Assembly (NCBI RefSeq): GCF_055900595.2
Contig: NZ_CM148325.1
Length of the DNA stretch: 64,000 nt
Reading direction: 5' to 3' (one strand)
The position numbers and the translations under genes are program-made. The notes beneath the pieces are model-generated. The model was not told the DNA's origin. It did not search any database and saw only the letters and a list, made by a program, of their open reading frames with translations. Positions 4,841 through 63,583 of this stretch are shown here, in pieces (position 1 is the first letter of the stretch; every line of letters starts with the position of its first letter).

Positions 4841-5248
4841 TTACCCCGCCCGATGATGACAGCAGCCAGAGAGATTTTCGATAATCGGGCAGTCGGCGCT
4901 GTCATCGCCAGGGCAGGCATTCGCCAGCGCCAGTAGCTGGTCGCGCATGGATTGCAGCTCCTCAATGTGTCGTTCGATCTCCGCCACTTTCTCCAGGGTG
5001 CGCCGTTTTACATCGGCGCTGTGACGCTGCGGGTCGTTAAACAGATTCACCAGTTCGCCGCTCTCTTCCAGGTTAAAGCCCACCTGGCGCGCCTGGCGCA
5101 GTAAGGTCAGTTCGTTGAGATGCTGCTGCGTGTAGGTTCGATAACCATTTTCGCTGCGCATCGGCGGCGTCACCAGCCCCTTTTCTTCATAGAAGCGAAT
5201 GGCTTTGCTGGTCAGGCCGGTAATTTTTGCTACATCGCTAATGTTCAT
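4841..5248 (-). CDS. cueR: MerR-family copper-responsive regulator CueR
   Basis: 135-aa translation [26 protein letters not shown]...[24 protein letters not shown] recognised as E. coli CueR. Confidence 0.95.
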
Positions 5249-31868: not shown

Positions 31869-32882
31869 CTACCTCCCTTTTTCCTCAAAATGTGGACACT
31901 CAATGGACATATCACATAGCGGATTATGCATCACAGCATCGCTTAAATAATCCGGCGAAAAATGCGCATAAGTCATTGTCTGAGATATATCTGCATGACC
32001 GAGGATTTTTTGAAGAGAAATAATATTCCCCCCATTCATCATAAAATGGGTGGCAAATGTATGCCTCAATACATGAACCGCTTGACCGTCCGGCAAATTA
32101 GGCTTAGCCACCTTCAGTTTCAGCCTAAACCATTTATAACTCACCCGAAATAAACGCCCCTCCTTGCGATGTTTTACAAGCCTAACAACATCATCAGAAA
32201 CAGGAACAACCCGACGCTTATTATTTTTTGTGAAATTAAATACAACCTTATTACCGATAATATGTTCCCCCATTAGCTGATATGCTTCATTCCAGCGACA
32301 GCCTGTAGACAACAAAAGGACAGCCATTCGGTAATAATCTCCCGAACCCTTGCAGATAGAAAGAAACGCACCAATCTCTTCATGATTAAGATAAGCCATC
32401 TCTGGGGTTTTTTCCTTGAGGCGAGGAAGCGACAATACAGGGTTACTACCGTGATATTCACCAATCTCTGCCATAGCCTTTAACGCAGCGCTAAACGCAA
32501 AAAGATCATGGTTGATTGTAGATGCCTTAACCCCTTGATCGAGACGGCGCGATCTATATTCAGCAACCATGCGTTCATCAATCTCGTACATCATAGGGTC
32601 ACCCATATCAAGACAAATACACTGGAGGTTATTCAGTCTACGATTCGCGTAATCCTTGTGACGACCTATCAGTAACCACCACGTCGCAATGAAATCGCTT
32701 AAATATCGCTTGTCCAGAAGATTACCGAAAACATCAACAGAAGGGCGATCAGCAAGAACTTCGCGTTCAAATGCTACAGCCAGATTTTTTTTCTCAAACT
32801 TCCGACGAATGCGCCTTCCCTTACTTCCGTCGGGTCGAATGTCCACAAAATAGCGACCATCTTCGAGCTTCTTAATTGACAT
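31869..32882 (-). CDS. int: P2-family tyrosine integrase
   Basis: MSIKKLEDGRYFVDIRP... close to P2 Int N-terminus; C-terminal R..H..R..Y catalytic region (HVLRHTFATH, MTYAHF); ORF track start 32912 probably too far upstream. Confidence 0.9.
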   Translation of the reverse strand: MSIKKLEDGRYFVDIRPDGSKGRRIRRKFEKKNLAVAFEREVLADRPSVDVFGNLLDKRYLSDFIATWWLLIGRHKDYANRRLNNLQCICLDMGDPMMYEIDERMVAEYRSRRLDQGVKASTINHDLFAFSAALKAMAEIGEYHGSNPVLSLPRLKEKTPEMAYLNHEEIGAFLSICKGSGDYYRMAVLLLSTGCRWNEAYQLMGEHIIGNKVVFNFTKNNKRRVVPVSDDVVRLVKHRKEGRLFRVSYKWFRLKLKVAKPNLPDGQAVHVLRHTFATHFMMNGGNIISLQKILGHADISQTMTYAHFSPDYLSDAVMHNPLCDMSIECPHFEEKGR

Positions 32883-32951
32883 AAGAAGACCCTCCAACAG
32901 TCCATTCTCCATCTTGAAAACAGATAGAGAAAACGTATTCCTTATAAAGAG

Positions 32952-37782: not shown

Positions 37783-40272
37783 ATGGAGTTCGTCAGAGAC
37801 TGGCAAAAACCGCGCCCCGCTATCGGGCGCGAAGGCTTACCCGTACCTGAAACCGCACTGGATACCATCCTGAAGTGTTACCGCGCAGACGAAGAGCGCG
37901 CACTGCACGCTGAAGAGCAGGGTCATCCGCTTGCGGGCACAACCATCGGTAACGCGATCGACAAGTGGGAAGGCGCACAGGAGCGCCAGGAAGAGGCCAT
38001 CACGCTCACACAGGAAGCGAGAAGACACCCGCCCACCCTTATTGAGGAAACCCTCAAAGAGCTGGACACCCTGCCCAAGTGGTTGAGGCTGCCGCTGATT
38101 AAGCACCTGAACTTTTTAAGGCGCAAACAGGAGGACGAACAACAGAAAGGCAAGCGCGGCAAGGACACCCGCAAATATGAGCGCTTCCTGAAAAACGGCA
38201 TCCCCGCACGTCTTCGCCGTATTCGTGAGATTAACGCTCGCTTTGCACCGTTAAGTTTTCAGGCCGCTGCCATGCGCGAGAGTCTGGAAGAACTGATCAC
38301 ACTGCCGAACCTGAGCCGTGAACGCATCCAGAAAATAGCCGTACTGCTTGCCAGCGCCGTTAAAATGCATCTTGCCGACGCAATGGACAAGGCCCGCGAA
38401 ATAACAGGGAACGACAAAGACGACAACCTGAACAACTGGCTGATTGCCTACCAGTATATTGGTCGCCGTGTCCTGAAGCTGGGGATCACCCCACCATACT
38501 GGAGCGCCCTTGAACTCCGCCCCGACCGCAGAAGCCCCCCGGACGTGACACTGGTTCCGGGCGCTGTTTTGCGCCTGAACGACGCCGAATGGTGGAATAA
38601 AAAACTTCGCCAGATGCACGACGTCTGGCGTGAGGAACTTTTACGTGCAGCGGGCCTTGTATCCCGCCAGACCTCCGTTTATGTGAGCCGTGAAGCGCTG
38701 GCAGACTTCCGCGAAAAACAGGCCCGTACCCGCGATTTTCTCAAAGCGCACGACGTGGAGAACGAAGACGGCGAACGCATCAGTCTGGAAGATATCTACT
38801 ACGCCAGTACATCCAACCCGCATAACCGCCGCAACGAGATGATGGCGTGCGTTAAGGGAATGGAGCTTATCGCACAGGAACGCGGCGACGTGGCCTTCTT
38901 CGTCACGGTCACAGCCCCGTCTCGTTTTCACAGCGTCACCGACGCAGGCACGCTGAACCCGAAATACAAAGGCGCAACCGTAAAGGACGCCAGCGACTAT
39001 CTGGTTTATAACTTCTTCGCCTCCGCCCGCAAACTCATCAAAAAAGAGAAGCGGGGCTGGTACGGCATTCGCACCGTGGAGCCTCACCACGACGGCACGC
39101 CCCACTGGCACATGCTGGTATTCACAAGCCCTGAGAACGAAGAGCGCATCACGGAAATCATGTGCAATGCCGCCATTCGCGAAGACCGGGCAGAGCTGGG
39201 CGACGACATCACCCCGCGCTTCAAGTGCGAGAAGATAGATCCCGAAAAAGGCACGCCAACCAGCTACATCGCCACCTACATAGGCAAAGGCATTGACGCC
39301 GCTGCATTCGGCGACACGGATCCAAAAACAGGTAAACCGCCCGTTGACCACGAAAGCGGAAAACCTATGGCGGACACCGTGGAAAACGCCGTCGCCTGGG
39401 CGCGCCTGCATCGCATTCGCCAGTTCCAGTTCTTTGGCCTCCCTTCCCGTCAGGTGTGGCGTGAGTTCCGCCGCCTTGCCGGACAAATGGCACGCAACCC
39501 GAAGGGGCCGCAGGCACTGACCAACCCCAAAGCCGACGCCCTCCTTGTTGCAGCCGATACGGGGTGTTTTGCCAGCTACATCATGCATCAGGGCGGTGTG
39601 CTCATTCCCCGTAGTGAATATCTGGCCCGCACAGCCTACGTCACCGCAGAAGAGCCGAACAATTACAGCGAATTCCCCGAGCGCATTTACGGTATCCGCA
39701 TGCCGGAACTGGGGGAGGACTTCACGTTATGCACCCACCCGGAAGAGTGGAAAATCGTCAGAAAGGAACCGGAACCAGACAACCGCACGGGCGAGGGTTT
39801 TGACCTTCAGGGCGGCCCCGCCGCCCCTTGGACTCGTGGCAATAACTGTCACCCTGACGAAAAAACAACCAACAACAGCACACAAACAGAACAGTCAGAG
39901 TGGGCAAAACTGCCCCCCTTACCCCCATCGTCGGACGGTTTTGTGAGCTGGTTTAAGTCGCTTAAGAGGCCGGACAGGAAAAAACTACAAAGATTGCTCA
40001 AAAAACGCACCGAAGAGAGTCGCCAGAACGCCAGCGGCGGCACCGACACACCCACCGACACCATTAACCTGGGCGTTGTGCTGCCGGAACTGCCGGAAAT
40101 CGTGCAAGTCCGCCGCGATCTGGAAGCGCTGGGCGCGGACTTCCCCGAAGCAATGGCCCATTCCGTCTTTATGGGTGCCCGCGTTCGTCTGGGTGACGGT
40201 CGCACCGTTCACCGCGACGAGCAGACCGGGCGCATCACCGTCACCAGTCTGCAACCGGAGGCGAAACCATGA
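37783..40272 (+). CDS. A: P2 gpA-type rolling-circle replication initiator
   Basis: 829 aa; position after the early genes and length fit the P2/186 A protein; HxH-type motif region (HWHMLVF). Confidence 0.85.
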   Translation: MEFVRDWQKPRPAIGREGLPVPETALDTILKCYRADEERALHAEEQGHPLAGTTIGNAIDKWEGAQERQEEAITLTQEARRHPPTLIEETLKELDTLPKWLRLPLIKHLNFLRRKQEDEQQKGKRGKDTRKYERFLKNGIPARLRRIREINARFAPLSFQAAAMRESLEELITLPNLSRERIQKIAVLLASAVKMHLADAMDKAREITGNDKDDNLNNWLIAYQYIGRRVLKLGITPPYWSALELRPDRRSPPDVTLVPGAVLRLNDAEWWNKKLRQMHDVWREELLRAAGLVSRQTSVYVSREALADFREKQARTRDFLKAHDVENEDGERISLEDIYYASTSNPHNRRNEMMACVKGMELIAQERGDVAFFVTVTAPSRFHSVTDAGTLNPKYKGATVKDASDYLVYNFFASARKLIKKEKRGWYGIRTVEPHHDGTPHWHMLVFTSPENEERITEIMCNAAIREDRAELGDDITPRFKCEKIDPEKGTPTSYIATYIGKGIDAAAFGDTDPKTGKPPVDHESGKPMADTVENAVAWARLHRIRQFQFFGLPSRQVWREFRRLAGQMARNPKGPQALTNPKADALLVAADTGCFASYIMHQGGVLIPRSEYLARTAYVTAEEPNNYSEFPERIYGIRMPELGEDFTLCTHPEEWKIVRKEPEPDNRTGEGFDLQGGPAAPWTRGNNCHPDEKTTNNSTQTEQSEWAKLPPLPPSSDGFVSWFKSLKRPDRKKLQRLLKKRTEESRQNASGGTDTPTDTINLGVVLPELPEIVQVRRDLEALGADFPEAMAHSVFMGARVRLGDGRTVHRDEQTGRITVTSLQPEAKP

Positions 40273-43910: not shown

Positions 43911-44966
43911 TCAGGATATGGGCCGGGTGTCTAACAGTGCGTAAGGGTTAAAACGGATCACCTCTTCGCCCAGCCAGTCGTTGACGTGTTTCATTGCTTC
44001 CATGACGGGCATCAGTTCGTTAATGGCAAACACACGGGCTGCCTTCTCCACATCCCCGAATGACCCCTTCTCACCCGGCATGGCCCCCATCAGCTGAGGT
44101 GGCACGCGGTGCACAGCCAGCACGTCATCACGCGATGCGGCCTTGACGTTCATGAACTCATCCTTTGCGGTGATTTGCTGAAACGGCAAAATCTGTACGC
44201 CATCCTTACCACCTCCCGCCGCGTGGATGAGCAGATTTTTAAACGCCCCGCCACCACGCGCGCTTTGCAGTGTTTCCCGCAGTTTTTCCATGCTTTCACG
44301 GTCAACCTGCGCCGCACCGATGTAGACAATACAGCCCGCGTGTGAGCCGTTATCGTAGTAGAGCTTGCGGAAGATATCGGCGGAATGTGACAGGCTGGCA
44401 GACAGCAGGCCGCCCAGGTAATCCGGCATCCCGTAAATCTCCTGGTTGATATCAGGATTCATCAGGTGGCATATCGTCCCCTCACGAAAGCGGTACTCTT
44501 CCTGTCCTTCCTGTATATACCACCATGATTTCATATCGCTGCCACGTCGCATGTATTTCGCCAGCGCCCGGCGCAGGGCCAGCGGTTCGCCAAGCATGTT
44601 GCGCCGCAGCTCAAGACAGGCATTACCGAACACAAACCAGTCCATCGCCACCCCGGCGAACTCCTGGCGGGACAGCAGAGGATGTGGAATATAGCAGCCC
44701 AGCAGCACATTACGTTTGAAGCTGAGCGCCGACTGGTGCCAGGACGTCTGGCGGGCAGCCCGTGCCAGTCCGTACCAGTCAACGGGCGTTTCAAACCACC
44801 GCCCGTTGTCGGCGCAGTACATGCTGTCCAGCAGGTCGGCCCCTGACAGCCGGTAAGGTCCTTCAAACGTGAAGGCACTCAGTGTCGGGTCGCTTCGCAG
44901 GGAATCCGCAAGGCTGCCCTGCGCTGCGCGGGCGTTCGTACGTCGTTGTTTATTTTTTCTGCTCAT
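43911..44966 (-). CDS. Q: portal protein (P2 gpQ-like)
   Basis: 351 aa; position downstream of terminase P in the leftward P-Q operon. Confidence 0.85.
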   Translation of the reverse strand: MSRKNKQRRTNARAAQGSLADSLRSDPTLSAFTFEGPYRLSGADLLDSMYCADNGRWFETPVDWYGLARAARQTSWHQSALSFKRNVLLGCYIPHPLLSRQEFAGVAMDWFVFGNACLELRRNMLGEPLALRRALAKYMRRGSDMKSWWYIQEGQEEYRFREGTICHLMNPDINQEIYGMPDYLGGLLSASLSHSADIFRKLYYDNGSHAGCIVYIGAAQVDRESMEKLRETLQSARGGGAFKNLLIHAAGGGKDGVQILPFQQITAKDEFMNVKAASRDDVLAVHRVPPQLMGAMPGEKGSFGDVEKAARVFAINELMPVMEAMKHVNDWLGEEVIRFNPYALLDTRPIS

Positions 44967-46717
44967 CAGAACTCCGTAACACTGAAGGGGGCGGCATCAT
45001 GTTCACCGCCGACAGGTTCGTTGATAACGGCCAGCATGGTGGCCCATGCAAGATCGCCATGGCTTACGCCTCTTGCGCGATCTGTTTCGTAGGTGATAAA
45101 TCCGGCCTGCGTTTTTGTTTTGCGTACCGCGTTAAAGGCGCTCACCAGTTCGCGCTCGCTGCGGTCGTACTCCCACCGCCCGGCGCGCATGAGCTGCAGC
45201 ATCTTCAGAACCAGCGTGCGCTTTGATGACAGGGTGAAGGTGTAGGGAATGGCTGCCGGAAAAAAGCGCTTCACAATCTGATACACCGCATCCCCGTGAC
45301 CGCCGGTTACGTCAATACCGATATGCTCAACGTTATAGCGAAAGGTGAACTCTTCAATCACCTTCGCCTGCGCCTCAAACTCCAGCCCCTGCACCCGCCG
45401 CGTCTCCACGGTGCGAAAACGCCCGCCCGGTACGGCTGGCGGCACCACCACGACAACCGCCCCGCTGTCACCGTTCCCGCTACTGCCGTTGGCGTCGTAC
45501 CCAATCCACACAGGGCGGTTCCCCATCGGACGCGGTGCAAACGGCTTCCAGTCCGGCCACTCGTCGTATCCGTCAACACCGCAGCCAATCAGGATATTCA
45601 GGTTAAATGCCGATTCCCCTTCGCGAGCAAATTCACACATGTAGAGATTGCGGAACTCGTCTTCAGTGTTATTGCGCCGGATTTTGTCAATGTTGGTTAA
45701 CGTCCATCCCTGACTGACCACATCTTCCAGCGTCACAATTTGCCGCCAGATATAGTCAGGACAGATAAGGCCGTTATGAAGCGCATTCCAGCTCACATCA
45801 AAATGCTGACGTTTATGAGTACGAAGCCCTTCATTCCAGTGATCGCCGTTCCAGTATGCATACGCCTCATGTGTTTCACTTGATGGCGTGGAAAAATAGG
45901 TACACCGCAAACCATCCAGCGTTGCCATAGCAGCAGCCACCTTGCGCAGCTCTGCGAAACGCCCCGTCCAGAAAAACTCATCAAAATACAGATTCCCTGT
46001 GTACGCTTGCGCGGTGGCCGCAGAAGTGCCGAGAAAATGCAGCTCTGCACCGTTGGAGAGGATGACTTTATCGCCCCCTTTCAGTTCCACATCAACTTCA
46101 GATGCAGCCTTCTGAATAATGCTTTTAAACTGGAGCGCCTGACGACGAGACGCAGACAAAAAAATCTGGTTACGCTGGTAAGGTTGTGCCACATCGTCAC
46201 GCAGCGCCATCAGCAGCGCTTCCTGCGCAAAATACCAGGTCGCCCCAATCTGGCGGGATTTCAGGATCATCCTGTCAGTAATTCCGGCACGCTCACAGGC
46301 ACCGATAGCATCAAGCCATTTGCGCTGGTGTCCGGCCAGCCTGTCGGTAATTTTTTCCCGCAGCGCCGCGATCTGTTCCGGCGTGAAATGATTTTTGTGT
46401 TTTTTCGCCCGGCCTTTCTTTCCTGTTGCCGTCTCATCCGGCAGACCGTCATGCAGCTTTTTAAGCTGACGGGTCAGCAAATCAATTTCCTTAAAGTCCC
46501 CGCCTGTTTTATTCTGTTTTTCCGTGAGCTGAATGAGTCGCGCATCCATGGACTGCGTGACACGCTGAACCGGGGGCGTCTCATCCCACTGGTCGCGTTT
46601 TTTCCACGAATGGATCGTGTTCTGGTTGATACCCATAAGGCGGGAAATTTCCGCAACAGGGTAACCCTGCCAGTACAGCTGGCGTGCCCGCTGGCGAACA
46701 AATGTATCCTGAATCAT
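44966..46717 (-). CDS. P: terminase large (ATPase) subunit (P2 gpP-like)
   Basis: 583 aa; N-terminal HTH-like segment, ATPase and nuclease regions. Confidence 0.9.
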   Translation of the reverse strand: MIQDTFVRQRARQLYWQGYPVAEISRLMGINQNTIHSWKKRDQWDETPPVQRVTQSMDARLIQLTEKQNKTGGDFKEIDLLTRQLKKLHDGLPDETATGKKGRAKKHKNHFTPEQIAALREKITDRLAGHQRKWLDAIGACERAGITDRMILKSRQIGATWYFAQEALLMALRDDVAQPYQRNQIFLSASRRQALQFKSIIQKAASEVDVELKGGDKVILSNGAELHFLGTSAATAQAYTGNLYFDEFFWTGRFAELRKVAAAMATLDGLRCTYFSTPSSETHEAYAYWNGDHWNEGLRTHKRQHFDVSWNALHNGLICPDYIWRQIVTLEDVVSQGWTLTNIDKIRRNNTEDEFRNLYMCEFAREGESAFNLNILIGCGVDGYDEWPDWKPFAPRPMGNRPVWIGYDANGSSGNGDSGAVVVVVPPAVPGGRFRTVETRRVQGLEFEAQAKVIEEFTFRYNVEHIGIDVTGGHGDAVYQIVKRFFPAAIPYTFTLSSKRTLVLKMLQLMRAGRWEYDRSERELVSAFNAVRKTKTQAGFITYETDRARGVSHGDLAWATMLAVINEPVGGEHDAAPFSVTEF

Positions 46718-49763: not shown

Positions 49764-50258
49764 ATGAGCATGGTCGCAAGACCGGAAGCCGCCCCTGCGC
49801 GGGACGACATCACCGACACCGACGACGGCGACGCCACCATCACCGCCGGGGCATTCTGGCCGGAGATTGTGCTGCGGGAGCTGCGCCTTGCAGTACGCCT
49901 GCCGGGCCGCATCACCTCCACACGTCTGGCGCACGTTGCCACGGGAGCCGTGGCTCACGTCACGCGGGAGCTGGAAGAGTGGCAGCAGGCGCAAATCGCC
50001 GCAGGATTCAGCACGCTGACAGACGTACCTGCCGCCACCATCAACGGTGAGAGCGTCAACGCCTGGCATTACCGGCACGCCGTCTACAGCGCCACCCGTG
50101 CCCTGATTCTGGAGCGCTGGCGGGATGTGGACACCACCGACAAGGGGGACCGCAGGGCTGACGCACTGGATGAGCAGGTGGAGGACCTGTGGCGCGACGT
50201 GCGCTGGGCGATTTCCGATATTCTCGGCTTTCCCCGTCTTTTTGTGGAGCTTGTGTGA
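49764..50258 (+). CDS. L: capsid completion protein (P2 gpL-like)
   Basis: ATG at 49764 with aaggagcg RBS. Confidence 0.8.
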   Translation: MSMVARPEAAPARDDITDTDDGDATITAGAFWPEIVLRELRLAVRLPGRITSTRLAHVATGAVAHVTRELEEWQQAQIAAGFSTLTDVPAATINGESVNAWHYRHAVYSATRALILERWRDVDTTDKGDRRADALDEQVEDLWRDVRWAISDILGFPRLFVELV

Positions 50259-50455
50259 TGAAAGTGAGGGCACTTCAGGGGGACACCGTGGATTTACTCT
50301 GTTTCCGGCACTACGGCACCACGCAGGGGGTGACCGCACAGGTACTTGATGCCAATCCCGGGCTCTGCCGCCAGGTAATTCTGGAAGCGGGACAGGAGGT
50401 GGAGATGCCGGAGCCGGAAAGGAAACAGCAACGCGAAAAGGTAAAGCTATGGTGA
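50258..50455 (+). CDS. X: tail protein X (P2 gpX-like)
   Basis: 65-aa ORF MKVRALQGDTVD... at the X position. Confidence 0.75.
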   Translation: MKVRALQGDTVDLLCFRHYGTTQGVTAQVLDANPGLCRQVILEAGQEVEMPEPERKQQREKVKLW

Positions 50456-50739
50456 CGGGATTTTTTCAGCGCGTCAGTGACTGGATCACCTTCTGGGCGT
50501 CAGTGACGGCAACAACCATTGGTGTTATGACCATCAGCGAAAAAATTGCGCTGGCCGGGCTGCTTCTGGGGTCACTTTCCGCCATCCATGCCTGGCGCCA
50601 CCGCAGGCGTACGGAGCAGGCAATGAAGCGCCGCAATGACCTTATCGCCCGCATCCTGGCACGTTCAGAAAACCGCGAGCTTCACGACGGTGAGAGACGG
50701 GCACTGGACAGCGTGAGACAGGACGGAGAAGAGCGGTGA
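50449..50739 (+). CDS. holin (probably pinholin, partner of SAR endolysin)
   Basis: 96 aa with hydrophobic helices, charged C-terminus; precedes endolysin. Confidence 0.7.
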   Translation: MVTGFFQRVSDWITFWASVTATTIGVMTISEKIALAGLLLGSLSAIHAWRHRRRTEQAMKRRNDLIARILARSENRELHDGERRALDSVRQDGEER

Positions 50740-51281
50740 AGCTGCCGGTAAAACGTTATGCGGTGGCGGCCATTGTGGCGCTGGGCGTCTCCATGGCACC
50801 CGGTGAACTGAGAACCTCACGGGAAGCACAGATAAAAATCGCCACCCGGGAAGAGTGCCGGGCGACACCGTACCGTGATATTGCAGGAGTAATGACCGTG
50901 GGATGTGGTTCAACAGGGGGCGTGGAGAACCGGGTTTACGGAGAAAAGGAGGTGGCCCGCCGCTGGGTGAATGACCTGCGGCACGCGGAAAACTGTATCA
51001 ACCAGAACTTCAGCGGTGCCGCCATGCCCCAGTCCGCCTTTGAGGCGATGACCGACGCGGCGTTCAACGTCGGCTGTACCGGCCTGATGTGGTACCGGGA
51101 CAGGAGCGGCAACCGGCAGCGCACCACCATCTGGAAGCACGCACAGGCGCACCGCTGGGTGGCGATGTGCGGGAGACTGACCGATTTTGTCAACAGTGGC
51201 GGACGCCGCTCACAGGGGCTGGTTAACCGCCGGGAGGAGTTCAGACAGTGGTGTCTTCGCGACACGGGAGGCAGCACATGA
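50736..51281 (+). CDS. SAR endolysin (T4-lysozyme-like muramidase with N-terminal signal-arrest-release segment)
   Basis: N-terminal YAVAAIVALGVSMAP; catalytic E-D-T spacing in REECRATPYRDIAGVMTVGCG; GTG start overlapping holin stop. Confidence 0.85.
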   Translation: MKLPVKRYAVAAIVALGVSMAPGELRTSREAQIKIATREECRATPYRDIAGVMTVGCGSTGGVENRVYGEKEVARRWVNDLRHAENCINQNFSGAAMPQSAFEAMTDAAFNVGCTGLMWYRDRSGNRQRTTIWKHAQAHRWVAMCGRLTDFVNSGGRRSQGLVNRREEFRQWCLRDTGGST

Positions 51282-51685
51282 GACCGGTTTACGCCGTGAT
51301 TGTTGCCCTCATGGTGACCGCCCTGACGGCAGTGGCCATGTGGCAGTCATACCGGCTGGGGCGTGCCGGTGAGGCACGTGACGCCGCAGAGCAGCAGCTG
51401 GGCGAATACAGCCGTGCGCTGCGTGAATCCTCCGCCGTTATCAGCGATGCCTCCGCCGTACTGCATGAGGTGATGACGCAGCGACAGCAAAGGGCACAGG
51501 AAGGAGAAGCCAGACGTGAACAGCTTCGCGAAATTACTGCGACGGATGAGTGCGCCCGCGCTCTTCCTGACCACCGTTTTACTGACCGGCTGCGCGAACA
51601 CACGGAACGCGCCACTGCCCGCGCCCTCCTTCCGGTTCATTCCGGCGGGACTGACGACGGGAACACGGCCCCCGCCCTTCCCTGA
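51278..51685 (+). CDS. lysB: i-spanin (LysB/Rz-like)
   Basis: N-terminal TM helix then coiled-coil; ATGA overlap with endolysin. Confidence 0.7.
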   Translation: MRPVYAVIVALMVTALTAVAMWQSYRLGRAGEARDAAEQQLGEYSRALRESSAVISDASAVLHEVMTQRQQRAQEGEARREQLREITATDECARALPDHRFTDRLREHTERATARALLPVHSGGTDDGNTAPALP

Positions 51686-51830
51686 ACACCCCACCTGGGG
51701 AAATATCGGGATATGGAGCGACAGCCTCCTGGATGCACTGGAAACCTGCAACGCAGACAAACAGGCCATTGAGGCGCTGGAGCGCCGGAGACTCAACCGA
51801 CAGAACGGAGGGGGACATGCTGAAAAGTAA
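51516..51830 (+). CDS. lysC: o-spanin lipoprotein (LysC/Rz1-like), overlapping lysB in another frame
   Basis: lipobox LLTGC after signal peptide; Pro-rich; overlapped arrangement as in P2. Confidence 0.7.
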   Translation: MNSFAKLLRRMSAPALFLTTVLLTGCANTRNAPLPAPSFRFIPAGLTTGTRPPPFPEHPTWGNIGIWSDSLLDALETCNADKQAIEALERRRLNRQNGGGHAEK

Positions 51831-52281
51831 ATCCCTGAGCACACACATGAGTACAGCGTGCCGGTGGTGCAGGGCCAACCCGGAAAAGTTCACCGTGTTC
51901 ATTGAACGTGGCGGGATAGAGACCACCGGCGAGACGCCGACGTTCGTGTACAACTACCGGCTCGTGATGTTCGTCATGGACTACACGGGCGACCTGGACG
52001 ACCTGACGCTGCCGCTGATTGTCTGGCTGGCAGAGAACCAGCCGCAGTTGCTGCTTAATCCTGAGCGCAACGGCGATATTCAGTTCACGGCGGCCATTAA
52101 CGACGACGACAGTGCGGACGTGCTTTTTGAGGTGCCGCTGCGCGAGCGCGTGCGCGTCACCCGCAGGGATGACGGCACCCTCACAACGGAACATCTGCCG
52201 GAGCCGAAATCGCGCATCCCGCAGGACGGCGACTGGTCGCACATTCTGGAGGATGTGACGTGGGAGGTGACCGGTGACTGA
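51817..52281 (+). CDS. R: tail completion protein (P2 gpR-like)
   Basis: start MLKSKSL with RBS ggaggggg. Confidence 0.8.
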   Translation: MLKSKSLSTHMSTACRWCRANPEKFTVFIERGGIETTGETPTFVYNYRLVMFVMDYTGDLDDLTLPLIVWLAENQPQLLLNPERNGDIQFTAAINDDDSADVLFEVPLRERVRVTRRDDGTLTTEHLPEPKSRIPQDGDWSHILEDVTWEVTGD

Positions 52282-57515: not shown

Positions 57516-60500
57516 CTAATCTCTGTCACGGAAACTACCGACTGTCTGGCGGATACGGCGTTCCATTTCCGCACGGACGGCATCACCCACCATTTTTGCC
57601 AGTTCGCGCGGGTTTTGCGTGTGAACATCATGCAGGTGAATATGCAGTTCGCCAGTTAATCCCCATGGTGCCGGATCACTCTGACGCGGTCGGGGCGATG
57701 CGGGGGATATGGGCTGGCGCACAGCCTCAACCACCGGACGGGATGTTGCCGTTACGACGGGTGTCATTACCGGCGCAATATTGCCGGACACTACCGGTTT
57801 AATTACCGGGGAGAGCGTCGGTATAACATCGCCAGCCATAACCGGTTTGATCGCTGGCGAAATAACCGGAGCAACAGACTCAGCCATGACGGAACTGACA
57901 GGCTGAGGCGCTCTCACTATGCCAGCATCGATAACCAGCATGAGCTCGCGTACTGCCTCAAGGACAGGACGGGATATTGCCGCCATCACTGGTGTCATTA
58001 GCGGGGAGAACGTCGGCATGACATCGTGAGTCATAACCGGTTTGATCACCGGCGAAACCACCGGCGTAATATTACCGGACAGTACCGGACGGACGACCGG
58101 AGGAATAACCGGCACATTATTCACGGACACCACCGGCTTCACGACCGGCGACACGTTCGCCGTGGTGGATATCAGCGGCGAAACACTGACAGGCGGTGGC
58201 GCTGGCAGCGGTGGCAACGAAGGCACACTGACCGACGGCACCTGCGGCAGTCTGACAGGTGGCTCACTGACACTACCCGGTAACAGGGAAGCTGCGCGGT
58301 TAAAGCGTTCCTCCTTCCACTCACCACGAACGGCCAGCGCTTCCGGCAGGTTTTTAAAGATAATATCGCCGGGACCAGTGCGTTTTTTCGCCTGTTTCGC
58401 CTCATCCAGCAGGCCACCGGTGTTATCGACGATTTTATTCAGGCGACGCATGGTGCCGGTATTCTCCCCCGTCAGCGGAGCAGTTGCTGCAGGTGCAGGT
58501 ACTGGCGGCTTTTTGTCTTTGTCATTTTGCGGCGGATTAATGACATTAACATCCGCCAGGAGCATGGCGGCTTTCTCGTTCAGCAGCTCCTTCTGCTTCA
58601 GCTCTTCCGCCTTTTTCCGGGCGCGCTCAACCGCCGACGGAATCAGCCCGAGTTTTTCCAGCACCCGGGTTAATGAGTCAATCAGCAGCGTAACCGGACC
58701 GGTCACCAGATTGCTGATAAACTCCCCGACCTTCTGCCCGAACGTCCGCCCGGCTTCCGTGCACTTGTCCAGCTCATCCTTTGTTGTGCTTACCGGCGCG
58801 AACAAATCCACGAACCACTGCCACACACGCCCGATTGTCTGCCCGACATACTCAAACAATGGTCCCAGTGGTGCCACAGCCTCGCGCAGTGGCGTAAGCC
58901 CCTGCCACAGGCCGGACAAGAACCCGCCCACGACAGCCTTCAGCTGGTCCCAGTGCCGCCAGATAAGCACTGCCGCACCGACCAGTGTCGCCACCACAAG
59001 GCCCACCGGACTTAACAGAAAACCCAGCGCCCCGCCAAGTGCGCCCACCGCACCACTCACCATCCCCCACAGTGCGGGCAGACCTGACAGTCTGAGCGCC
59101 AGTATTCCGATACCGCGCCCCAGTGAAATCAGTGCGCCGCCAGGTGAAGTGAACGCAGCCAGCAGACCACCACGCAGCGCGCCAAGTCCCGCCTGCACAC
59201 CACGAAGCCGCCCCGCAACTACGCCCAGCAGTGCAGCAAACCGTCCGGCACCGGAGGTGATACCGACAAACAGCACGCGCCAGCCACCGATACCGCCCAG
59301 CGGACCACCGAGTACGCCGCGCAGCTGCGTCAGTAACGGCAGCGCACGACCGAGGCCGGATGTGCCGGTCAGCAGGGCAAACCCAAGACGCAGTTTTGCC
59401 AGCGGCCCCATCAACACACCAGTGGCAAGTGACAGCGCCCCCATGGCCGCAACCGCAGCCAGCAGTGCACCACCGGCAATCAGCAGTTGTTTTGTCAGTT
59501 CAGGGTGCGCCTGGGCCAGCGCGGTGACTTTCGCAATAACCCGGGTGAACGACTGCGTGACAGAACGCAGCGGCCCGTCAACGAGGTCAGCGACACGGAT
59601 ACGCAGCCCTTCCCATGCGCTGTTCAGTGATTTCAGGTCGCCGTCCAGGTTGTCCGCCATGATTCTGGCGTTTTCTTCCAGTTCGCCGTTCGCTGCCTGA
59701 ATCTCACGCGTCAGGCGCGGCAGGTTTTTTTCGCCTGCCTGTTCAACCAGGCTCATCAGGGAGACATACGCCTCCTGCCCGGCAATATCTGAAAAGAACG
59801 AGACTTTTGCCGCGTTACCGTATTTACGGGTGGCCTGATACAGCTCATACAGGATATCTTCCATCGGGCGCATGTTCCCGTAAGCATCCTGCGTTTCCAC
59901 GCCCAGCTGTTTCAGCGCCTTTGCTGCCGCTTTAGGCGGGTTCACAAGGCGGGACAGACTGGAGCGCAGCGCCGTACCAGCATCACTGCCACGTATCCCC
60001 ATCGACCCAAGCAACCCGGTCATGGCTGCGGTCTGTTCAAGAGACAGACCGAGTGAGGCGGCGACCGGTCCCGTATATTTCATCGTCTCACCAAGCCCGC
60101 GCAGGTCGGTATTGGTGCGGGTGAACGTTGCGGCCAGCGTGTCACCCACGCGGTTCATCTGGTCGGCAGACAACCCGAACTGCGTAAGGATATTTGAGCT
60201 GATATCGGCCGTCTGACCGAGGTCCATGCCGCTGGCCGTTGCCAGATTCAGCACGCCGGGAAGAGCCGCCTGTATCGCCTGCGGCGTGAACCCCGCCATG
60301 GCAAGGAACGCCTGACCGCTGGCAGCATCACCTGCGGTAAACTGCGTTTCGGAGCCGAGTTTAAGCGCCTGTTCGCGCAGCGCCTTAAACTGCGGACTGT
60401 TTTTGTCAATACGGGTCAGCGCCTGGACGCGCGACATCTCCTTACCAAAACTGACCGCCGGTTGCAGGAAACGCCCGGCCGCATAGCCACCTGCCGCTGC

Positions 60501-61094
60501 CGTGCCGACTGCCGTAAATCCACCCGCTTTCAGTTTTCCCGCCATCTCCTGAGCGCGGAAATATTGCTGGCGTGCCTGCGTGACGCGTGCCAGAGTCTGC
60601 CGTTCACGTTCCAGCTGTTCGTTGTATTGCTGTGTTCGCCGTATGGCCTGTTGAATGGTGTTGTCACTGCCGGAAAGCGCAATACCGTGACGCCGCAGCT
60701 CACCACCCAGTTCGCGCATTCGCTGAACTTCACGCGCACGGACCTCATTGAGACGCTCAAGTTTGAGGCTCAAATCGTTCATCAGCTTTTTCTGTTTGTC
60801 AGACAGCACGGTTCCGGCGCGCTGAATTTGCTGAAGTGCGCTTAACTGGCGTTGTGCCCGGGCAATGCCGTTTCCGGCCTTGTTTGCAGCCTCGCGGGCG
60901 CGATCAAATGAACGGGCGTGGCGTTCCAGGTTTTTGATCGCACCCTGCGTTCTCTGTATGGAGTCGCCAAGCTGGCCCATCATGCGACGGGCGTTTTCGG
61001 TGGGACGGGTCAGCCTGTCAACAGCGCTGAAGGCGACCCGTATATCAAGCGTTTTCATGCTCTGCGTTCCCGCTGCGAAGGGCCGCCCGCTCAC
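57516..61094 (-). CDS. T: tail tape measure protein (gpT-like, 1,192 aa, with Pro/Val-rich tandem repeats near the C-terminus)
   Basis: long helical protein with a transmembrane-like glycine-rich central region; located between E and U. Confidence 0.85.
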   Translation of the reverse strand: MSGRPFAAGTQSMKTLDIRVAFSAVDRLTRPTENARRMMGQLGDSIQRTQGAIKNLERHARSFDRAREAANKAGNGIARAQRQLSALQQIQRAGTVLSDKQKKLMNDLSLKLERLNEVRAREVQRMRELGGELRRHGIALSGSDNTIQQAIRRTQQYNEQLERERQTLARVTQARQQYFRAQEMAGKLKAGGFTAVGTAAAGGYAAGRFLQPAVSFGKEMSRVQALTRIDKNSPQFKALREQALKLGSETQFTAGDAASGQAFLAMAGFTPQAIQAALPGVLNLATASGMDLGQTADISSNILTQFGLSADQMNRVGDTLAATFTRTNTDLRGLGETMKYTGPVAASLGLSLEQTAAMTGLLGSMGIRGSDAGTALRSSLSRLVNPPKAAAKALKQLGVETQDAYGNMRPMEDILYELYQATRKYGNAAKVSFFSDIAGQEAYVSLMSLVEQAGEKNLPRLTREIQAANGELEENARIMADNLDGDLKSLNSAWEGLRIRVADLVDGPLRSVTQSFTRVIAKVTALAQAHPELTKQLLIAGGALLAAVAAMGALSLATGVLMGPLAKLRLGFALLTGTSGLGRALPLLTQLRGVLGGPLGGIGGWRVLFVGITSGAGRFAALLGVVAGRLRGVQAGLGALRGGLLAAFTSPGGALISLGRGIGILALRLSGLPALWGMVSGAVGALGGALGFLLSPVGLVVATLVGAAVLIWRHWDQLKAVVGGFLSGLWQGLTPLREAVAPLGPLFEYVGQTIGRVWQWFVDLFAPVSTTKDELDKCTEAGRTFGQKVGEFISNLVTGPVTLLIDSLTRVLEKLGLIPSAVERARKKAEELKQKELLNEKAAMLLADVNVINPPQNDKDKKPPVPAPAATAPLTGENTGTMRRLNKIVDNTGGLLDEAKQAKKRTGPGDIIFKNLPEALAVRGEWKEERFNRAASLLPGSVSEPPVRLPQVPSVSVPSLPPLPAPPPVSVSPLISTTANVSPVVKPVVSVNNVPVIPPVVRPVLSGNITPVVSPVIKPVMTHDVMPTFSPLMTPVMAAISRPVLEAVRELMLVIDAGIVRAPQPVSSVMAESVAPVISPAIKPVMAGDVIPTLSPVIKPVVSGNIAPVMTPVVTATSRPVVEAVRQPISPASPRPRQSDPAPWGLTGELHIHLHDVHTQNPRELAKMVGDAVRAEMERRIRQTVGSFRDRD

Positions 61095-61571
61095 GCCAGG
61101 CGACCACCTCGCCGGGATCCATCAGGAAGATTTCAGCGGGAGACCAGTTGAAAATAACGGCGATATCCGCCACAAAGTCTTCAATATGCTCAAAGGGCAC
61201 GACGGTTATCAGCCTGCCGTCGCCGCCACGCTCTTCCCGCCAGAGTCCTGACCGGCCAAAAAATTAACCGCCACCCCGCACAGCTGAATAAAATCAGCGG
61301 ACCCCATGCGCTTAAGCAGAACCTCGTCCAGTCGCGGCGAAGTGACGCGCGGGAGTAACTCAAACATCGCGTCCGTTTTCATGTTCAGCACGTCAAGCAG
61401 TGACAGCCCGCGCAGTGAACCGGCCTGCTGTACAGCAGGCGTGATTTCCACATACGTGATTTTTTTGTTACCGAGCACAAGGGGCGTTTTCAGCGTCACG
61501 CCGCGCTCACTGGTCACGTCCGCCGCATCAGCACCGTCAGTAACAGGGGCAACAACCGGATTTTCTTTCAT
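61045..61571 (-). other. predicted E+E' product made by -1 programmed frameshift at TTTTTTG (61257-61263), extending to a TGA at 61045 and overlapping the T start
   Basis: hand translation of the -1 frame after the slippery heptamer gives ~70 more codons. Confidence 0.5.
61209..61571 (-). CDS. E: tail assembly chaperone E
   Basis: 120-aa ORF between FII and T containing a T6G slippery site near its 3' end. Confidence 0.8.
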   Translation of the reverse strand: MKENPVVAPVTDGADAADVTSERGVTLKTPLVLGNKKITYVEITPAVQQAGSLRGLSLLDVLNMKTDAMFELLPRVTSPRLDEVLLKRMGSADFIQLCGVAVNFLAGQDSGGKSVAATAG

Positions 61572-61621
61572 GAATAAAACCTCAAATCAGGGGGCGACGC
61601 CACGCGCCGCCGTGGAAAACA

Positions 61622-62140
61622 TTAACCACCAAGACCAATCGCCGAGCGCACGCGGTCCGGGAAGACGCTTTTGCCGTCCTTGCGTTCGATGTGGTTCAGT
61701 AAATCAATCTCCAGCACCGGACGGTCGTTAATGCTGAGTTTGTAGTAGGTACTTTTGACCGCATAGGTGTGAGACGTGACCTCACCCTGTTTGGCCTCCC
61801 CGGTATCAATTTCCGTCACGCGACCGCGAAGCTCAATCTCGTACAGGTCACTCTGTTCTTCATCGTTGTAGTACTCACCGACAAAGCGCAGCAGCGTACC
61901 GTCAATCGTTCCGCCGTACTTGAGGAACAGTTCGCGGGTCGGCCCGCCCATGGTGAAACTCGCATCCAGCGCGCCGTCATCCAGGCCAAGGTCGATATTT
62001 ACTGCACCGGCCATACCACCACCGCGATAGGCTTCCGTTTTACGGGTCAGTTTGGGGGCCGTGAAGCCGGTCACTCTGCCAATCTGGTTCACCCCGTCAG
62101 TAAACAGCGTGAACACCCTGAGATTTTTTGGTACGGCCAT
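61622..62140 (-). CDS. FII: tail tube protein FII
   Basis: 172 aa, position after the sheath gene. Confidence 0.9.
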   Translation of the reverse strand: MAVPKNLRVFTLFTDGVNQIGRVTGFTAPKLTRKTEAYRGGGMAGAVNIDLGLDDGALDASFTMGGPTRELFLKYGGTIDGTLLRFVGEYYNDEEQSDLYEIELRGRVTEIDTGEAKQGEVTSHTYAVKSTYYKLSINDRPVLEIDLLNHIERKDGKSVFPDRVRSAIGLGG

Positions 62141-63423
62141 TAAGCACCTCCAAGCGTCGCAAATGCAGGACCAAAGAATTCATCAGTAAACGTCTGGTAA
62201 AGTTCCATATCCTCAAGCGGCGGAACGGGCGTGTACTTGTAGCGGATACGCACGCGTCCCTGACGAAGTTCCGTGGTGCTGTTATCCACCACGTCATACC
62301 AGCACTCCGCACCAACGAGACGTCCTGACGTAACCAGCGCATCCAGTTTTGCGCGAATTGCGCTTAACACGTCTTTCACATTAGCAGGGGTCAGCGGGGC
62401 ATCAATCGTTTCAAACTGCGCTTCCGCAACAGAATCAGCCAGCACCTGAGCGGTTCGCGTGTACACCTCAAAGATATACGCCTTCGTTTCCGGCGTACGG
62501 TTGCCCCAGAAGCGGAAACCGTTACGGCGAATGATGGTGGTGATTTCCTTGTTGTTGAGATTGTTGGCATCGCTGTCTTCGGACTGAAGGGACCAGAACA
62601 CCGGGCTGGAAATACCCAGCACATTTCTTACCGGCACGTTGGACAGCGATTTATGCCAGCCCTGTTCGTGGTCAATACGTGCACGTAAACCGCAGGCGTA
62701 CGCCGCAGCCGGGAAGACCTCATTAGCGCCGGATTTCGGGTTATGGGCGATGAAGTCAGGCCAGAGCAGCATAAGTTCGCGCTCGTTAAATCTGGCGCGG
62801 TAGCTGATTGCATCAGCGGGCTTCTTGCAGTTGTGACAGCCCGCGTAGACAAATGCGCGAAGTTTTTCTGCAATTACACACAGGGATTTTGTGACAGCTT
62901 CAGTATCCAGTCCGGGCGCTGCGATGATGCGCGGACGGTAACCGATGGCATCATCCTGTTCAGCTATCAGAAGTGCATACATACCGGTATAATTACCGTC
63001 GTCATCCGTGCCACCAATGACATACTGGTCCTGCGTTTTGTGTGGGTATACAGGATGTGCATCTTCAGACTCATCAATACCAAAAAATGCCCTGTCTTCA
63101 GGATCCAGATGACCGAATGATGTAACTCCTGTATCCGGGGCGCCCTGAGAACTGGCATCAGGAACGCGCACCACAATCACCTTCGTGCTCACCTGGTCGG
63201 CGACAGCCTTAAGTGAACGGTACAGCGTGCCCTTTGTGCCGGTCTTACCCAGCACATCACTGACGCGGGTCAGCAGTATGGGTTTGTTCAGCGGGAACAG
63301 AGTTTCATCCGCGTCATCTGCCGTAGCCACAATACCAATAACACTGGAATCCACATCATTAATGGCGGTGGTAAGGCCGGTACTTTCCCTTACGCGCGCA
63401 CCATGAAAGCGTGTTTCACTCAT
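62140..63423 (-). CDS. FI: contractile tail sheath protein FI
   Basis: strong similarity to P2 FI (KLRAF, IDHEQGWHKSLSNV, RRNGFRFWGNRT, YKYTPVPPLE); likely start MSETRF at 63423. Confidence 0.9.
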   Translation of the reverse strand: MSETRFHGARVRESTGLTTAINDVDSSVIGIVATADDADETLFPLNKPILLTRVSDVLGKTGTKGTLYRSLKAVADQVSTKVIVVRVPDASSQGAPDTGVTSFGHLDPEDRAFFGIDESEDAHPVYPHKTQDQYVIGGTDDDGNYTGMYALLIAEQDDAIGYRPRIIAAPGLDTEAVTKSLCVIAEKLRAFVYAGCHNCKKPADAISYRARFNERELMLLWPDFIAHNPKSGANEVFPAAAYACGLRARIDHEQGWHKSLSNVPVRNVLGISSPVFWSLQSEDSDANNLNNKEITTIIRRNGFRFWGNRTPETKAYIFEVYTRTAQVLADSVAEAQFETIDAPLTPANVKDVLSAIRAKLDALVTSGRLVGAECWYDVVDNSTTELRQGRVRIRYKYTPVPPLEDMELYQTFTDEFFGPAFATLGGA

Positions 63424-63583
63424 ATGTTTCACCCTTGTCTGGCTGGTTGATTTTGCGTAATCATTACCCACGATGCCGCCGGTATCATCTCCTGCCCGTT
63501 CTCACCGTTCGCTTACAACAAACAGCCGTTCACCACGGTCGCACGCCGTGAAAACATGACGGGACACACCACGAGGGCAGACC

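Follow-up and report, generated by a model that had tools for sequence, protein, structure and literature searches.

Gene content and setting of the locus

The lysis cassette occupies positions 50449-51830 of the window, i.e., the whole stretch of 64,000 nucleotides analysed here, and consists of four genes with overlapping stops and starts, encoding in turn a class II holin, an SAR endolysin and the spanins LysB and LysC, with the tail genes X and R on either side (Table 1). All the elements claimed in the earlier note were found at these coordinates, including the GTG start of the endolysin, which was said to overlap the holin stop (GTGA at 50736), and lysB followed by lysC in a different frame. 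Upstream, the holin ATG and the stop of gene X share nucleotides (ATGGTGA); downstream, the lysB ATG overlaps the endolysin stop (ATGA), and the start of R overlaps the end of lysC by 14 nt. There is no ORF between the endolysin gene and lysB, and no lysA-like ORF was found. Judged by sequence comparison, the four cassette genes are homology-backed and are not chance ORFs. A megablast comparison with 50,697 phage records gave no match to the cassette, and the relatives discussed below surfaced only in the protein-level searches. With NCBIfam, none of the four proteins brought a model up to its cut-off; the sole match was that of the endolysin to BgtA (31.6 bits against a cut-off of 315). No tRNA genes that could mark an attachment site were found in the window.

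Table 1. Features of the lysis cassette and its flanks, with window coordinates and the evidence for each assignment.
Feature	Coordinates	Strand	Evidence and details
Tail protein X (upstream flank)	50258..50455	+	Pfam Phage_tail_X, 1.7e-20; 48% identity to P2 X
Class II holin, 96 aa, probably a pinholin	50449..50739 (ATG to TGA)	+	PHROG 1350 holin, 7.4e-23; hydropathy; family alignment
SAR endolysin, GH24 muramidase of the P1 Lyz / HP1 Lys family, 181 aa	50736..51281 (GTG to TGA)	+	Pfam, PHROG, PDB, AF2
SAR-like segment Y8-G23, YAVAAIVALGVSMAPG	50757..50804	+	Hydropathy, homologue alignment, AF2
Endolysin active-site stretch	50850..50906	+	E39 50850-52, C41 50856-58, D48 50877-79, T54 50895-97, C57 50904-06
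lysB, i-spanin, 135 aa	51278..51685	+	PHROG 214 Rz-like spanin, 4.8e-27; hydropathy
lysC, o-spanin, 104-aa precursor	51516..51830	+	Pfam LysC, 50.4 bits against a cut-off of 27, 2.1e-13; PHROG 3001/456
Tail completion protein R (downstream flank)	51817..52281	+	Pfam P2_Phage_GpR, 5.5e-38

The RefSeq annotation of the lysis genes is systematically wrong in this prophage family: the holin goes under the name 'phage tail protein', the start of the lysozyme is in some cases put at M20, with the SAR segment lost, and lysC is begun downstream of its lipobox.

Endolysin and its N-terminal segment

The endolysin matches the Pfam family Phage_lysozyme (PF00959) with 77.6 bits against a cut-off of 22.3, and is 45% identical to P1 Lyz over residues 9-174 (tblastn) and 40% identical to HP1 Lys (E=1e-34). 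Its sequence match to the P1 Lyz structure 1XJT (E=7e-36) aligns the catalytic triads, so that E39-X8-D48-X5-T54 corresponds to E42/C51/T57 of P1 Lyz, and C41 to C44. The triad motif E-X8-D/C-X5-T is defined in PMC9239132 and PMC4640515, with the D/C alternative cited in the latter. The AF2 model has a pLDDT of 94.3 overall and gives a TM score of 0.87 against the active form of full-length P1 Lyz vs. 0.59 against the inactive one. The N-terminal segment of the model is packed onto the body, with a helix at residues 10-20 (pLDDT 87-97), a packing that does not count as independent evidence, since AF2 has seen 1XJT.

The protein begins with MKLPVKR, where K2, K6 and R7 are basic, followed by the 16 uncharged, Ala/Gly-rich residues YAVAAIVALGVSMAPG. 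In the best window of this segment, 8 of the 17 residues are G, A, S or T, and the segment is less hydrophobic than the TMD of LysB; the sequence signature of an SAR domain is a basic N-terminus ahead of a TMD of low hydrophobicity with many Gly, Ala, Ser and Thr residues. The SAR-like N-terminus and the E-D-T triad described in the earlier note are therefore both present, and its identification of the protein as an SAR endolysin is strongly supported by the matches to 1XJT and HP1 Lys and by the likeness of the model to active P1 Lyz.

Holin

According to hydropathy, the 96-aa protein fits the layout of a small class II holin, with two predicted TMDs (N-in, C-in) at about residues 12-29 and 33-49, joined by the loop SEK, and a highly charged C-terminal tail of 47 aa that carries 14 K/R and 10 D/E. 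In TMD2, the motif G37xxxG41 is invariant in the family alignment. The protein scores 22.5 bits against the Pfam family of the HP1 holin (PF16080), below the cut-off of 28.8; seven of 11 family members match at E<=0.01 (best E 1.2e-4). The family profile aligns with HP1 Hol at an hhalign probability of 79% (E 1.5e-5), and the two proteins share 31% identity. On these comparisons, the protein is distantly related to the HP1 holin, whose family is TCDB 1.E.7 (PMC7312051). No relation of the family was found to S21 71/68 (hhalign probability 0.8%; no match to Pfam Phage_holin_2_1) or to P1 LydD, and BLASTP showed none to P2 Y either. Neither a dual-start nor an antiholin motif was seen: the ORF has no upstream in-frame start, and its next Met, M27, is inside TMD1.

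Spanins

LysB has a predicted TMD near its N-terminus (about residues 5-22), which is more hydrophobic than any other segment of the cassette, followed by a periplasmic helical domain, and shows weak similarity to the LysB proteins of the relatives. The gene lysC, in the +1 frame, starts within lysB with the GTG at 51516 and extends 145 nt beyond the lysB stop. Its product carries the lipobox L23-T24-G25-C26 (codons 51582-51593), with Ala at +2, which predicts sorting to the outer membrane, and a proline-rich mature part. Following the definitions of overlapped o-spanins (PMC6139136), lysB and lysC form a two-component overlapped spanin pair of the P2 LysB/LysC type, and the claim of overlapped spanins is strongly supported by the +1 frame of lysC and the lipobox LTGC.

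Alternative readings of the endolysin and the holin

The short stretch of 16 uncharged residues resembles an n-h-c signal peptide, with three basic residues in the n-region, an 11-residue hydrophobic core and an S-M-A end, and the SAR cysteine, for which the segment would have to be retained, is gone from this clade; the title of PMC8385771 provides a precedent in T4 RI, whose presumed SAR domain is a cleaved signal peptide. A cleavable Sec signal peptide, which would leave the lysozyme soluble in the periplasm, is nevertheless improbable. Homology links the segment to the SAR domain of P1 Lyz, which is proven, and to relatives with 65-69% identity that keep the functional SAR cysteine, and the AF2 model confidently places it within the fold, where it is also found in active P1 Lyz. 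In addition, P22 is at the +1 position of the AXA-like S-M-A site beyond the hydrophobic core and is kept in at least 90% of the 32 aligned homologues, missing only in P1 Lyz and HP1 Lys. Proline at +1 blocks signal peptidase I, and the remaining candidates by the -3/-1 rule fall within the hydrophobic core, with no other conserved site outside it. An unregulated periplasmic muramidase would presumably also lyse the cell prematurely. We infer from the sequence that the SAR segment would probably stay uncleaved. The notion that translation begins at M20, giving a cytoplasmic soluble enzyme that needs a large-hole holin, stems from RefSeq/PGAP, where the identical gene is called from this internal ATG in some genomes (WP_202116435.1), whereas the long form is called in other genomes and in phage records. 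It is scarcely credible, because GGAG precedes the GTG by 7 nt and no Shine-Dalgarno sequence was found before M20, the GTG aligns with the first-codon ATG of the relatives phiT5282H and ST16-OXA48phi5.4, and residues 1-22 are conserved across 49 homologues, with the changes in codons 1-19 being mostly at third positions, i.e., with conservation at the protein level. Misplaced starts are, moreover, a known problem in lysis genes (PMC6139136).

As for the 96-aa protein, its best reading is that of a pinholin, which is an assignment not provable from sequence, as pinholins and holins are indistinguishable at this level (PMC9025707; PMC12642591: 'necessitating experimental validation'). The protein could instead be a canonical large-hole class II holin that depolarises the membrane for an exported SAR endolysin, in the manner of P1 LydA/Lyz, which we regard as unlikely but deserving serious weight. 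Canonical holins can also serve SAR endolysins, e.g., P1 LydA/LydC (PMC9025707, PMC6116005), and exported endolysins are paired with canonical holins in both P1 and fOg44 (PMC6116005). The lack of similarity to S21 68 and LydD would agree with this, as would TMD1, which, unlike that of S21 68, is about as hydrophobic as TMD2 and not clearly less so, according to a Hessa-scale estimate that is rough. On the other side, the genes of SAR endolysins usually adjoin those of pinholins (PMC9025707, PMC9239132), the protein is small, with two TMDs and the invariant GxxxG in TMD2, and its distant homologue HP1 Hol was lethal without lysis and released no beta-galactosidase in experiments (PMC7312051). 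The release of HP1 phage is azide-sensitive (PMC7312051). The case for HP1 Hol as a pinholin is itself indirect, the work behind it including no complementation test with a canonical endolysin and claiming an unusual topology (PMC7312051). A releasin-like role, or another regulatory one towards the SAR endolysin, as played by Mu gp25, would be in keeping with the long charged cytoplasmic C-terminal domain with its near-invariant residues, and with the basic residues at positions 2, 6 and 7 of the endolysin, since such residues make Mu gp22 dependent on its releasin (PMC9239132). This reading is very improbable, however, because the protein has no match to DUF2730 and has two TMDs instead of one, while it matches a PHROG of holins and its homologue HP1 Hol is lethal alone and needed for lysis (PMC7312051).

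Comparison with known lysis systems

Among the closest known counterparts is the hol-lys pair of the Haemophilus phage HP1 (Peduoviridae, Hpunavirus), reported as a pinholin with an SAR endolysin (PMC7312051), both proteins being homologous to those in the window. Both cassettes have overlapping holin and endolysin genes, neither a dual-start motif nor an antiholin gene, and a LysB-like gene downstream, and both belong to the P2 family. They differ in that the HP1 cassette follows the tail tube gene, whereas that of the window is located between X and R; in that the window holin is too diverged from the HP1 holin for the Pfam family cut-off; and in that HP1 Lys has the P1-type cysteines (SAR Cys, E-C-T), whereas the window enzyme has E-D-T and C57 and no SAR Cys. 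The prototype SAR endolysin P1 Lyz (1XJT, active; 1XJU, inactive) has the same fold, with the SAR segments aligned, and shares C41, C87, C114, C145 and C173 (window numbering) with the window endolysin. In P1, however, lyz is not part of a holin-endolysin-spanin block of the form found in the window, and lydD comes after lyz. Phage 21 is similar in that a class II holin with two TMDs goes together with an SAR endolysin of the GH24 family (E-X8-D-X5-T) lacking an SAR cysteine, with the spanins after them, but R21 matches the window enzyme only remotely (E 1e-4), the dual-start antiholin is absent from the cassette, and the window spanins are overlapped, not embedded.

The cassette shares with P2 the slot between X and R and the overlapped lysB/lysC, with lysC in the +1 frame (PMC6139136; PMC3091744). 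The window LysB and LysC are too diverged from those of P2 for BLASTP, yet LysC belongs to the Pfam LysC family, which is a further likeness to P2. The claimed departure from the P2 Y/K description proved to be real: Y belongs to the class I holins, with three TMDs, K is a lambda-R-like soluble endolysin, BLASTP gave no significant match of P2 Y, K or LysA in the cassette, and P2 lysA has no equivalent there. The same gene order as in the window, namely L, X, holin, endolysin, LysB, (LysC), R, was found in Enterobacter phage phiT5282H (Novemvirus) and in the Klebsiella phages ST16-OXA48phi5.4 (Reipivirus) and 3LV2017 (Reginaelenavirus), with 61-69% identity in the endolysin and 27-52% in the holin; unlike the window enzyme, their endolysins have the P1-type cysteine set. 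E. coli phage Midge, likened here by description only, has a class II holin, an SAR endolysin and i/o-spanins (PMC12697156). Such a cassette has been known before, as the same one is present in phiT5282H, ST16-OXA48phi5.4, 3LV2017 and HP1, and the same kind has been described for Midge; it is an ordinary, intact phage lysis gene set, and for HP1, a phage of the P2 family, experiments on this kind of set have been published.

Cysteine pattern of the endolysin clade

Within a survey of 49 sequences, Y8, C41, D48 and C57 occur together in all 17 members of the clade to which the window endolysin belongs, while all 32 relatives of type A, P1 and HP1 included, have the SAR Cys (at the position of Y8), C41, C48 and I, L, M or V at position 57. 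The window endolysin has thus neither the SAR Cys nor the catalytic Cys, and keeps C41, the equivalent of C44 in P1 Lyz. The Y8/D48/C57 variant was seen only in prophage and metagenome proteins, and not among the best matches from isolated phages. In a broader survey of 130 cluster representatives, 58 had C41 together with an SAR-like stretch, and among these C57 and the SAR Cys were mutually exclusive (4 vs. 51, with 0 having both; Fisher p=8e-5, uncorrected for phylogeny). C41 and C57 occur without the SAR Cys in two or three distant lineages at least, which may point to a swap that is structurally coupled and has happened repeatedly.

P1 Lyz is reportedly activated via the SAR-domain Cys13 and a Cys44-Cys51 cage, as Xu et al. 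are said to have found in 2005. With Y8 and D48, disulfide isomerisation of this kind is impossible in the window endolysin, and its activation must be topological or conformational, as in R21, which likewise lacks an SAR cysteine. C41 probably pairs with the newly acquired C57; the AF2 secondary structure, with strands at 41-47 and 53-56, leaves this pairing undecided by itself. It is conceivable, although we lean slightly against it, that the clade has exchanged the disulfide between the SAR Cys and C41, along with the caged catalytic Cys, for Asp and an intradomain C41-C57 bond, with topology and refolding as the only control. More speculatively, the C41-C57 bond, flanking E39 and T54, might itself be a new kind of cage.

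Proposed mechanism and implications

The likely interpretation is that of an HP1-type lysis cassette which, in an E. coli prophage of P2-like type (Peduoviridae), takes the place of Y-K-lysA-lysB-lysC, together with the following course of lysis, which is modelled on its homologues. The four genes would be read from the late capsid/tail operon, and their overlapping stop and start codons, visible in the sequence, would couple their translation. By homology, the endolysin would be exported by Sec and tethered to the inner membrane by the weakly hydrophobic SAR segment in an enzymatically restrained state, while the two-TMD holin would accumulate in the inner membrane and trigger at a critical concentration, collapsing the proton-motive force, most likely via small pinholes as reported for HP1 Hol. 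Upon depolarisation, the SAR segment would leave the bilayer and refold against the catalytic domain, the arrangement seen in active P1 Lyz, the muramidase with E39/D48/T54 would degrade the murein, and LysB in the inner membrane and the lipoprotein LysC in the outer one would finally fuse both membranes. Sec export, tethering, release by depolarisation or a pinholin, and slow holin-free lysis have been shown for P1 Lyz and HP1 Lys (PMC7312051; PMC9025707).

The exchange of lysis modules among P2-like phages has already been documented (PMC3091744, PMC12697156, PMC7312051), and the cassette confirms that in the lysis slot of the P2 family the holin-endolysin pair is exchangeable while the LysB/LysC spanins stay. 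It adds a case of the HP1-type pair from an E. coli prophage, and its importance for biology in general is small. Of practical use, the Y8/D48/C57 clade and its 65-69% identical relatives with the P1-type cysteines make up a natural matched pair for gauging how much disulfide control contributes to the regulation of SAR endolysins.

Gene Content and Genomic Context of the Lysis Cassette

The stretch 50258-52281 is part of a P2-type late operon, with all genes on the plus strand and stop/start overlaps throughout, the gene identities being assigned with Pfam and PHROGs (see table). The span 50449-51830 of the earlier note opens exactly at the start of the holin gene and closes exactly at the stop of lysC, and the GTG start of the endolysin was indeed found to overlap the holin stop. 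Overall, the noted gene set was confirmed and its reading supported, the pinholin status and the non-cleavage of the endolysin being the parts that we only infer.

Features of the lysis cassette, the surrounding prophage and the adjoining locus
Feature	Position	Strand	Support or remark
Type I secretion, HlyD-family protein	5245-6420	-	
Type I secretion, ABC transporter	6417-8579	-	
ORF, 6,325 aa	8583-27560	-	
Type I secretion, TolC-like OEP	27669-29024	-	
Integrase	31872-32912	-	
GPA replication protein	37783-40272		
Portal and terminase ORFs	43911-46717	-	putative, by position
X, tail	50258-50455	+	Pfam Phage_tail_X, 1.7e-20
Holin, 96-aa membrane protein	50449-50739	+	PHROG 'holin', 7.4e-23
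Lysozyme (endolysin), 181 aa, GTG start	50736-51281	+	Phage_lysozyme, 77.6 bits
lysB	51278-51685	+	PHROG 'Rz-like spanin', 4.8e-27
lysC, GTG start, +1 frame relative to lysB	51516-51830	+	Pfam LysC, 50.4 bits, above cut-off
R, tail	51817-52281	+	P2 GpR, 5.5e-38
Large ORF, 1,192 aa	57516-61094	-	
Large ORF	61622-62140	-	
Large ORF	62140-63471	-	

The P2-like prophage occupies 32 kb around the cassette; its other putative genes are those for scaffold, capsid, small terminase and L, and after these come X, the cassette, R, S and the V-W-J-I tail genes. The prophage is rare, being present at ≥95% identity in 25 of the 5,426 complete E. coli genomes (hits H51-H75), and a large share of these 25 carriers are from chicken or poultry sources. 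The large minus-strand ORFs at 57516-63471 presumably encode the proteins that RefSeq calls tape measure, tube and sheath in identical prophages, and they converge on the V-W-J-I-H genes, unlike in P2, where both sets share one strand. The prophage late region of E. coli GF60 (hit H41, NZ_CP172185.1, 3200337-3222983) is about 2.6 kb longer than that of the window and is annotated with the IS21-family transposase istA, so that one prophage lineage bears an IS insertion. The 6,325-aa ORF begins with the N-terminal prefix domain of BapA, continues with bacterial Ig-like repeats, carries FG-GAP and RTX repeats at the C-terminus and is flanked by the type I secretion genes; 5245-29024 on the minus strand thus looks like a giant T1SS adhesin locus adjoining the prophage.

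Endolysin Family, Start Codon and Probable SAR Segment

The endolysin is, judged by sequence, a member of the P1 Lyz/HP1 Lys family, being 45% identical to P1 Lyz in residues 9-174 (tblastn) and 40% identical to HP1 Lys (E=1e-34), with a phmmer match in the PDB to 1XJT, the active form of P1 Lyz (E=7e-36). The E-D-T triad noted earlier was recovered as E39/D48/T54 in the canonical lysozyme motif E-X8-D-X5-T, aligned with E42/C51/T57 of P1 Lyz (phmmer, PDB), both D and C being accepted at the middle position (PMC9239132, PMC4640515). The N-terminus, MKLPVKR-YAVAAIVALGVSMAPG-ELRT, has three basic residues ahead of an uncharged run of 16, about half of it Ala/Gly/Ser, which is the published signature of SAR domains (PMC9239132, PMC12642591), and its aligned counterpart in P1 Lyz is a proven SAR domain, so that the SAR-like segment of the earlier note was borne out. 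RefSeq/PGAP begins the identical gene of strain LH50-c at M20, with the loss of this segment. The long form is nevertheless correct because GGAG lies 7 nt before the GTG (no Shine-Dalgarno sequence precedes M20), the phiT5282H and ST16-OXA48phi5.4 genes have their ATG start at the position of this GTG in the alignment, residues 1-22 are kept in length and sequence in 49 homologues (54-99% identical), and the alignment with the P1 Lyz SAR domain includes this part.

The same segment also has the look of an n-h-c signal peptide with S-M-A at its end. The residue at +1 of this site is P22, kept in at least 90% of the 32 aligned homologues and absent, among the sequences displayed, only from P1 Lyz and HP1 Lys, and the remaining positions compatible with the -3/-1 rule all fall within the hydrophobic core. 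Proline at +1 blocks signal peptidase I; P22 would be, as we infer, the device keeping the signal uncleaved. The AlphaFold2 model (32 homologues, pLDDT 94.3) superposes on the active full-length 1XJT with a TM-score of 0.87 and an rmsd of 1.9 Å over 175 columns, and far more poorly on the secreted inactive 1XJU (TM 0.59), residues 10-20 being confidently placed as a helix packed on the body. The model would thus fit a retained, refolding SAR segment, AlphaFold2 having seen 1XJT and therefore not being an independent source.

Cysteine Switch in the Endolysin Family

The 49-sequence alignment was cleanly divided into type A (32 sequences, including P1 Lyz, HP1 Lys, phiT5282H, ST16-OXA48phi5.4 and 3LV2017), with Cys at SAR position 8, C41, Cys at 48 replacing the catalytic Asp, and I/L/M/V at 57, and type B (17 sequences, including the window enzyme and E. 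coli strain 2-1), with Y8, C41, D48 and C57; C87, C114, C145 and C173 are common to both. Type B formed one NJ clade in 145 of 200 bootstraps with the three switch columns left out, the switch thus being a single event in this neighbourhood. From a wider survey of 1.84 billion cluster representatives, 58 with C41 and a SAR-like stretch were taken: 51 had the SAR cysteine without C57, four had C57 without the SAR cysteine, none had both, and three had neither (Fisher's exact p=8e-5, uncorrected for phylogeny). The four C57 representatives belong to at least two or three separate, distant sequence lineages. The exclusive patterns were mapped at 50757-50906 and in homologues P0014-P0060, P0084, P0102 and P0148.

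The simplest reading is that C41 always needs a partner, either the SAR cysteine, as in the Cys13-Cys44 bond that Xu et al. in 2005 reportedly described for active P1 Lyz, or C57. Disulfide isomerisation of the P1 type is consequently not open to the window endolysin, which must be controlled through its topology and conformation, as R21 is. This variant may already have been classed among the 'no SAR cysteine' enzymes by Kuty et al. in 2010.

Holin

The 96-aa protein is very probably a holin of some kind. It is hydrophobic in two short stretches, at about 12-29 and 33-49, with S-E-K between them, and then has a highly charged C-terminal tail of 47 residues, a class II layout. This cytoplasmic tail, residues 50-96 (50596-50736), includes H51, R52, R54, E56, R62, N63, L65 and I66, which are invariant or nearly so in the family, a conservation that far exceeds the needs of a simple charged anchor and makes a regulatory or interaction role possible. 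No similarity was found to P2 Y, with its three TMDs, or to the P1 pinholin LydD, and no relation to S21 68/71 (hhalign probability 0.8%). The match to the Pfam 'holin family HP1' was 22.5 bits, below the 28.8 cut-off, with seven of the 11 members of the window holin's own family likewise matching it at E≤0.01; the profile of that family aligned with HP1 Hol over 59 columns (hhalign probability 79%, E 1.5e-5), and the GxxxG of TMD2 (G37, G41) is invariant and shared with HP1. Experiments have shown that lysis of H. influenzae depends on HP1 Hol; in E. coli the protein was lethal with neither lowered turbidity nor beta-galactosidase leakage, and the study's conclusion was that a pinholin here works together with a SAR endolysin (PMC7312051). 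Pinholin is accordingly the most likely call for the window protein and is somewhat favoured, with the cautions that the homology is distant, that the HP1 evidence is itself indirect, and that canonical holins can also trigger SAR endolysins, e.g., in P1 (PMC9025707, PMC6116005). Neither a dual-start motif nor a separate antiholin was found in the cassette, as in HP1.

Spanins and RefSeq Annotation

The TMD of LysB, at residues of about 5-22, is the most hydrophobic one in the cassette, and the periplasmic portion of the protein is helical. The start of lysC lies inside lysB in the +1 frame (GTG 51516, with GGAG 9 nt upstream), and the gene ends 145 nt beyond lysB, in agreement with the overlapped spanins in different frames proposed earlier, an architecture typified by P2 (PMC6139136, PMC3091744). 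LysC bears a lipoprotein signal with K6, R9 and R10 in the n-region, the lipobox L23-T24-G25-C26 and Ala at +2, with predicted outer-membrane sorting, and its mature part is proline-rich. PGAP places the lysC start 41 codons downstream, losing the lipobox, which is a common error according to a spanin survey (PMC6139136).

Several RefSeq errors occur in the identical cassette of E. coli LH50-c (entry L003, NZ_CP100500.1, 1750-3131; also entry L002, 2220-2504), where, besides the M20 start of the lysozyme and the late lysC start, the holin is named 'phage tail protein', a name given to its family also in NCBI, nr and UniRef records, and LysB is labelled 'hypothetical protein'.

Relation to Known Phages

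The P2 module comprises Y, K, lysA, lysB and lysC, and only the lysB/lysC architecture and the X-R slot are common to it and the cassette, whose holin and endolysin are of the HP1/P1 type; the departure from P2 Y/K noted earlier is therefore upheld. Homologous proteins are encoded in the same order by the classified Peduoviridae Enterobacter phiT5282H (endolysin 69%, holin 52%), Klebsiella ST16-OXA48phi5.4 (66% and 51%) and Klebsiella 3LV2017 (61% and 27%). Since, in addition, the E. coli P2-like phage Midge was described with 'a class II holin, signal-arrest-release endolysin' and i/o-spanins (PMC12697156), and since a 2010 paper had reported P2-like phages in which the holin and endolysin genes of P2 are replaced (PMC3091744), the cassette is another example of an already known kind and the system itself is not new, the sole and mildly new element being the Y8/D48/C57 pattern of the endolysin clade.
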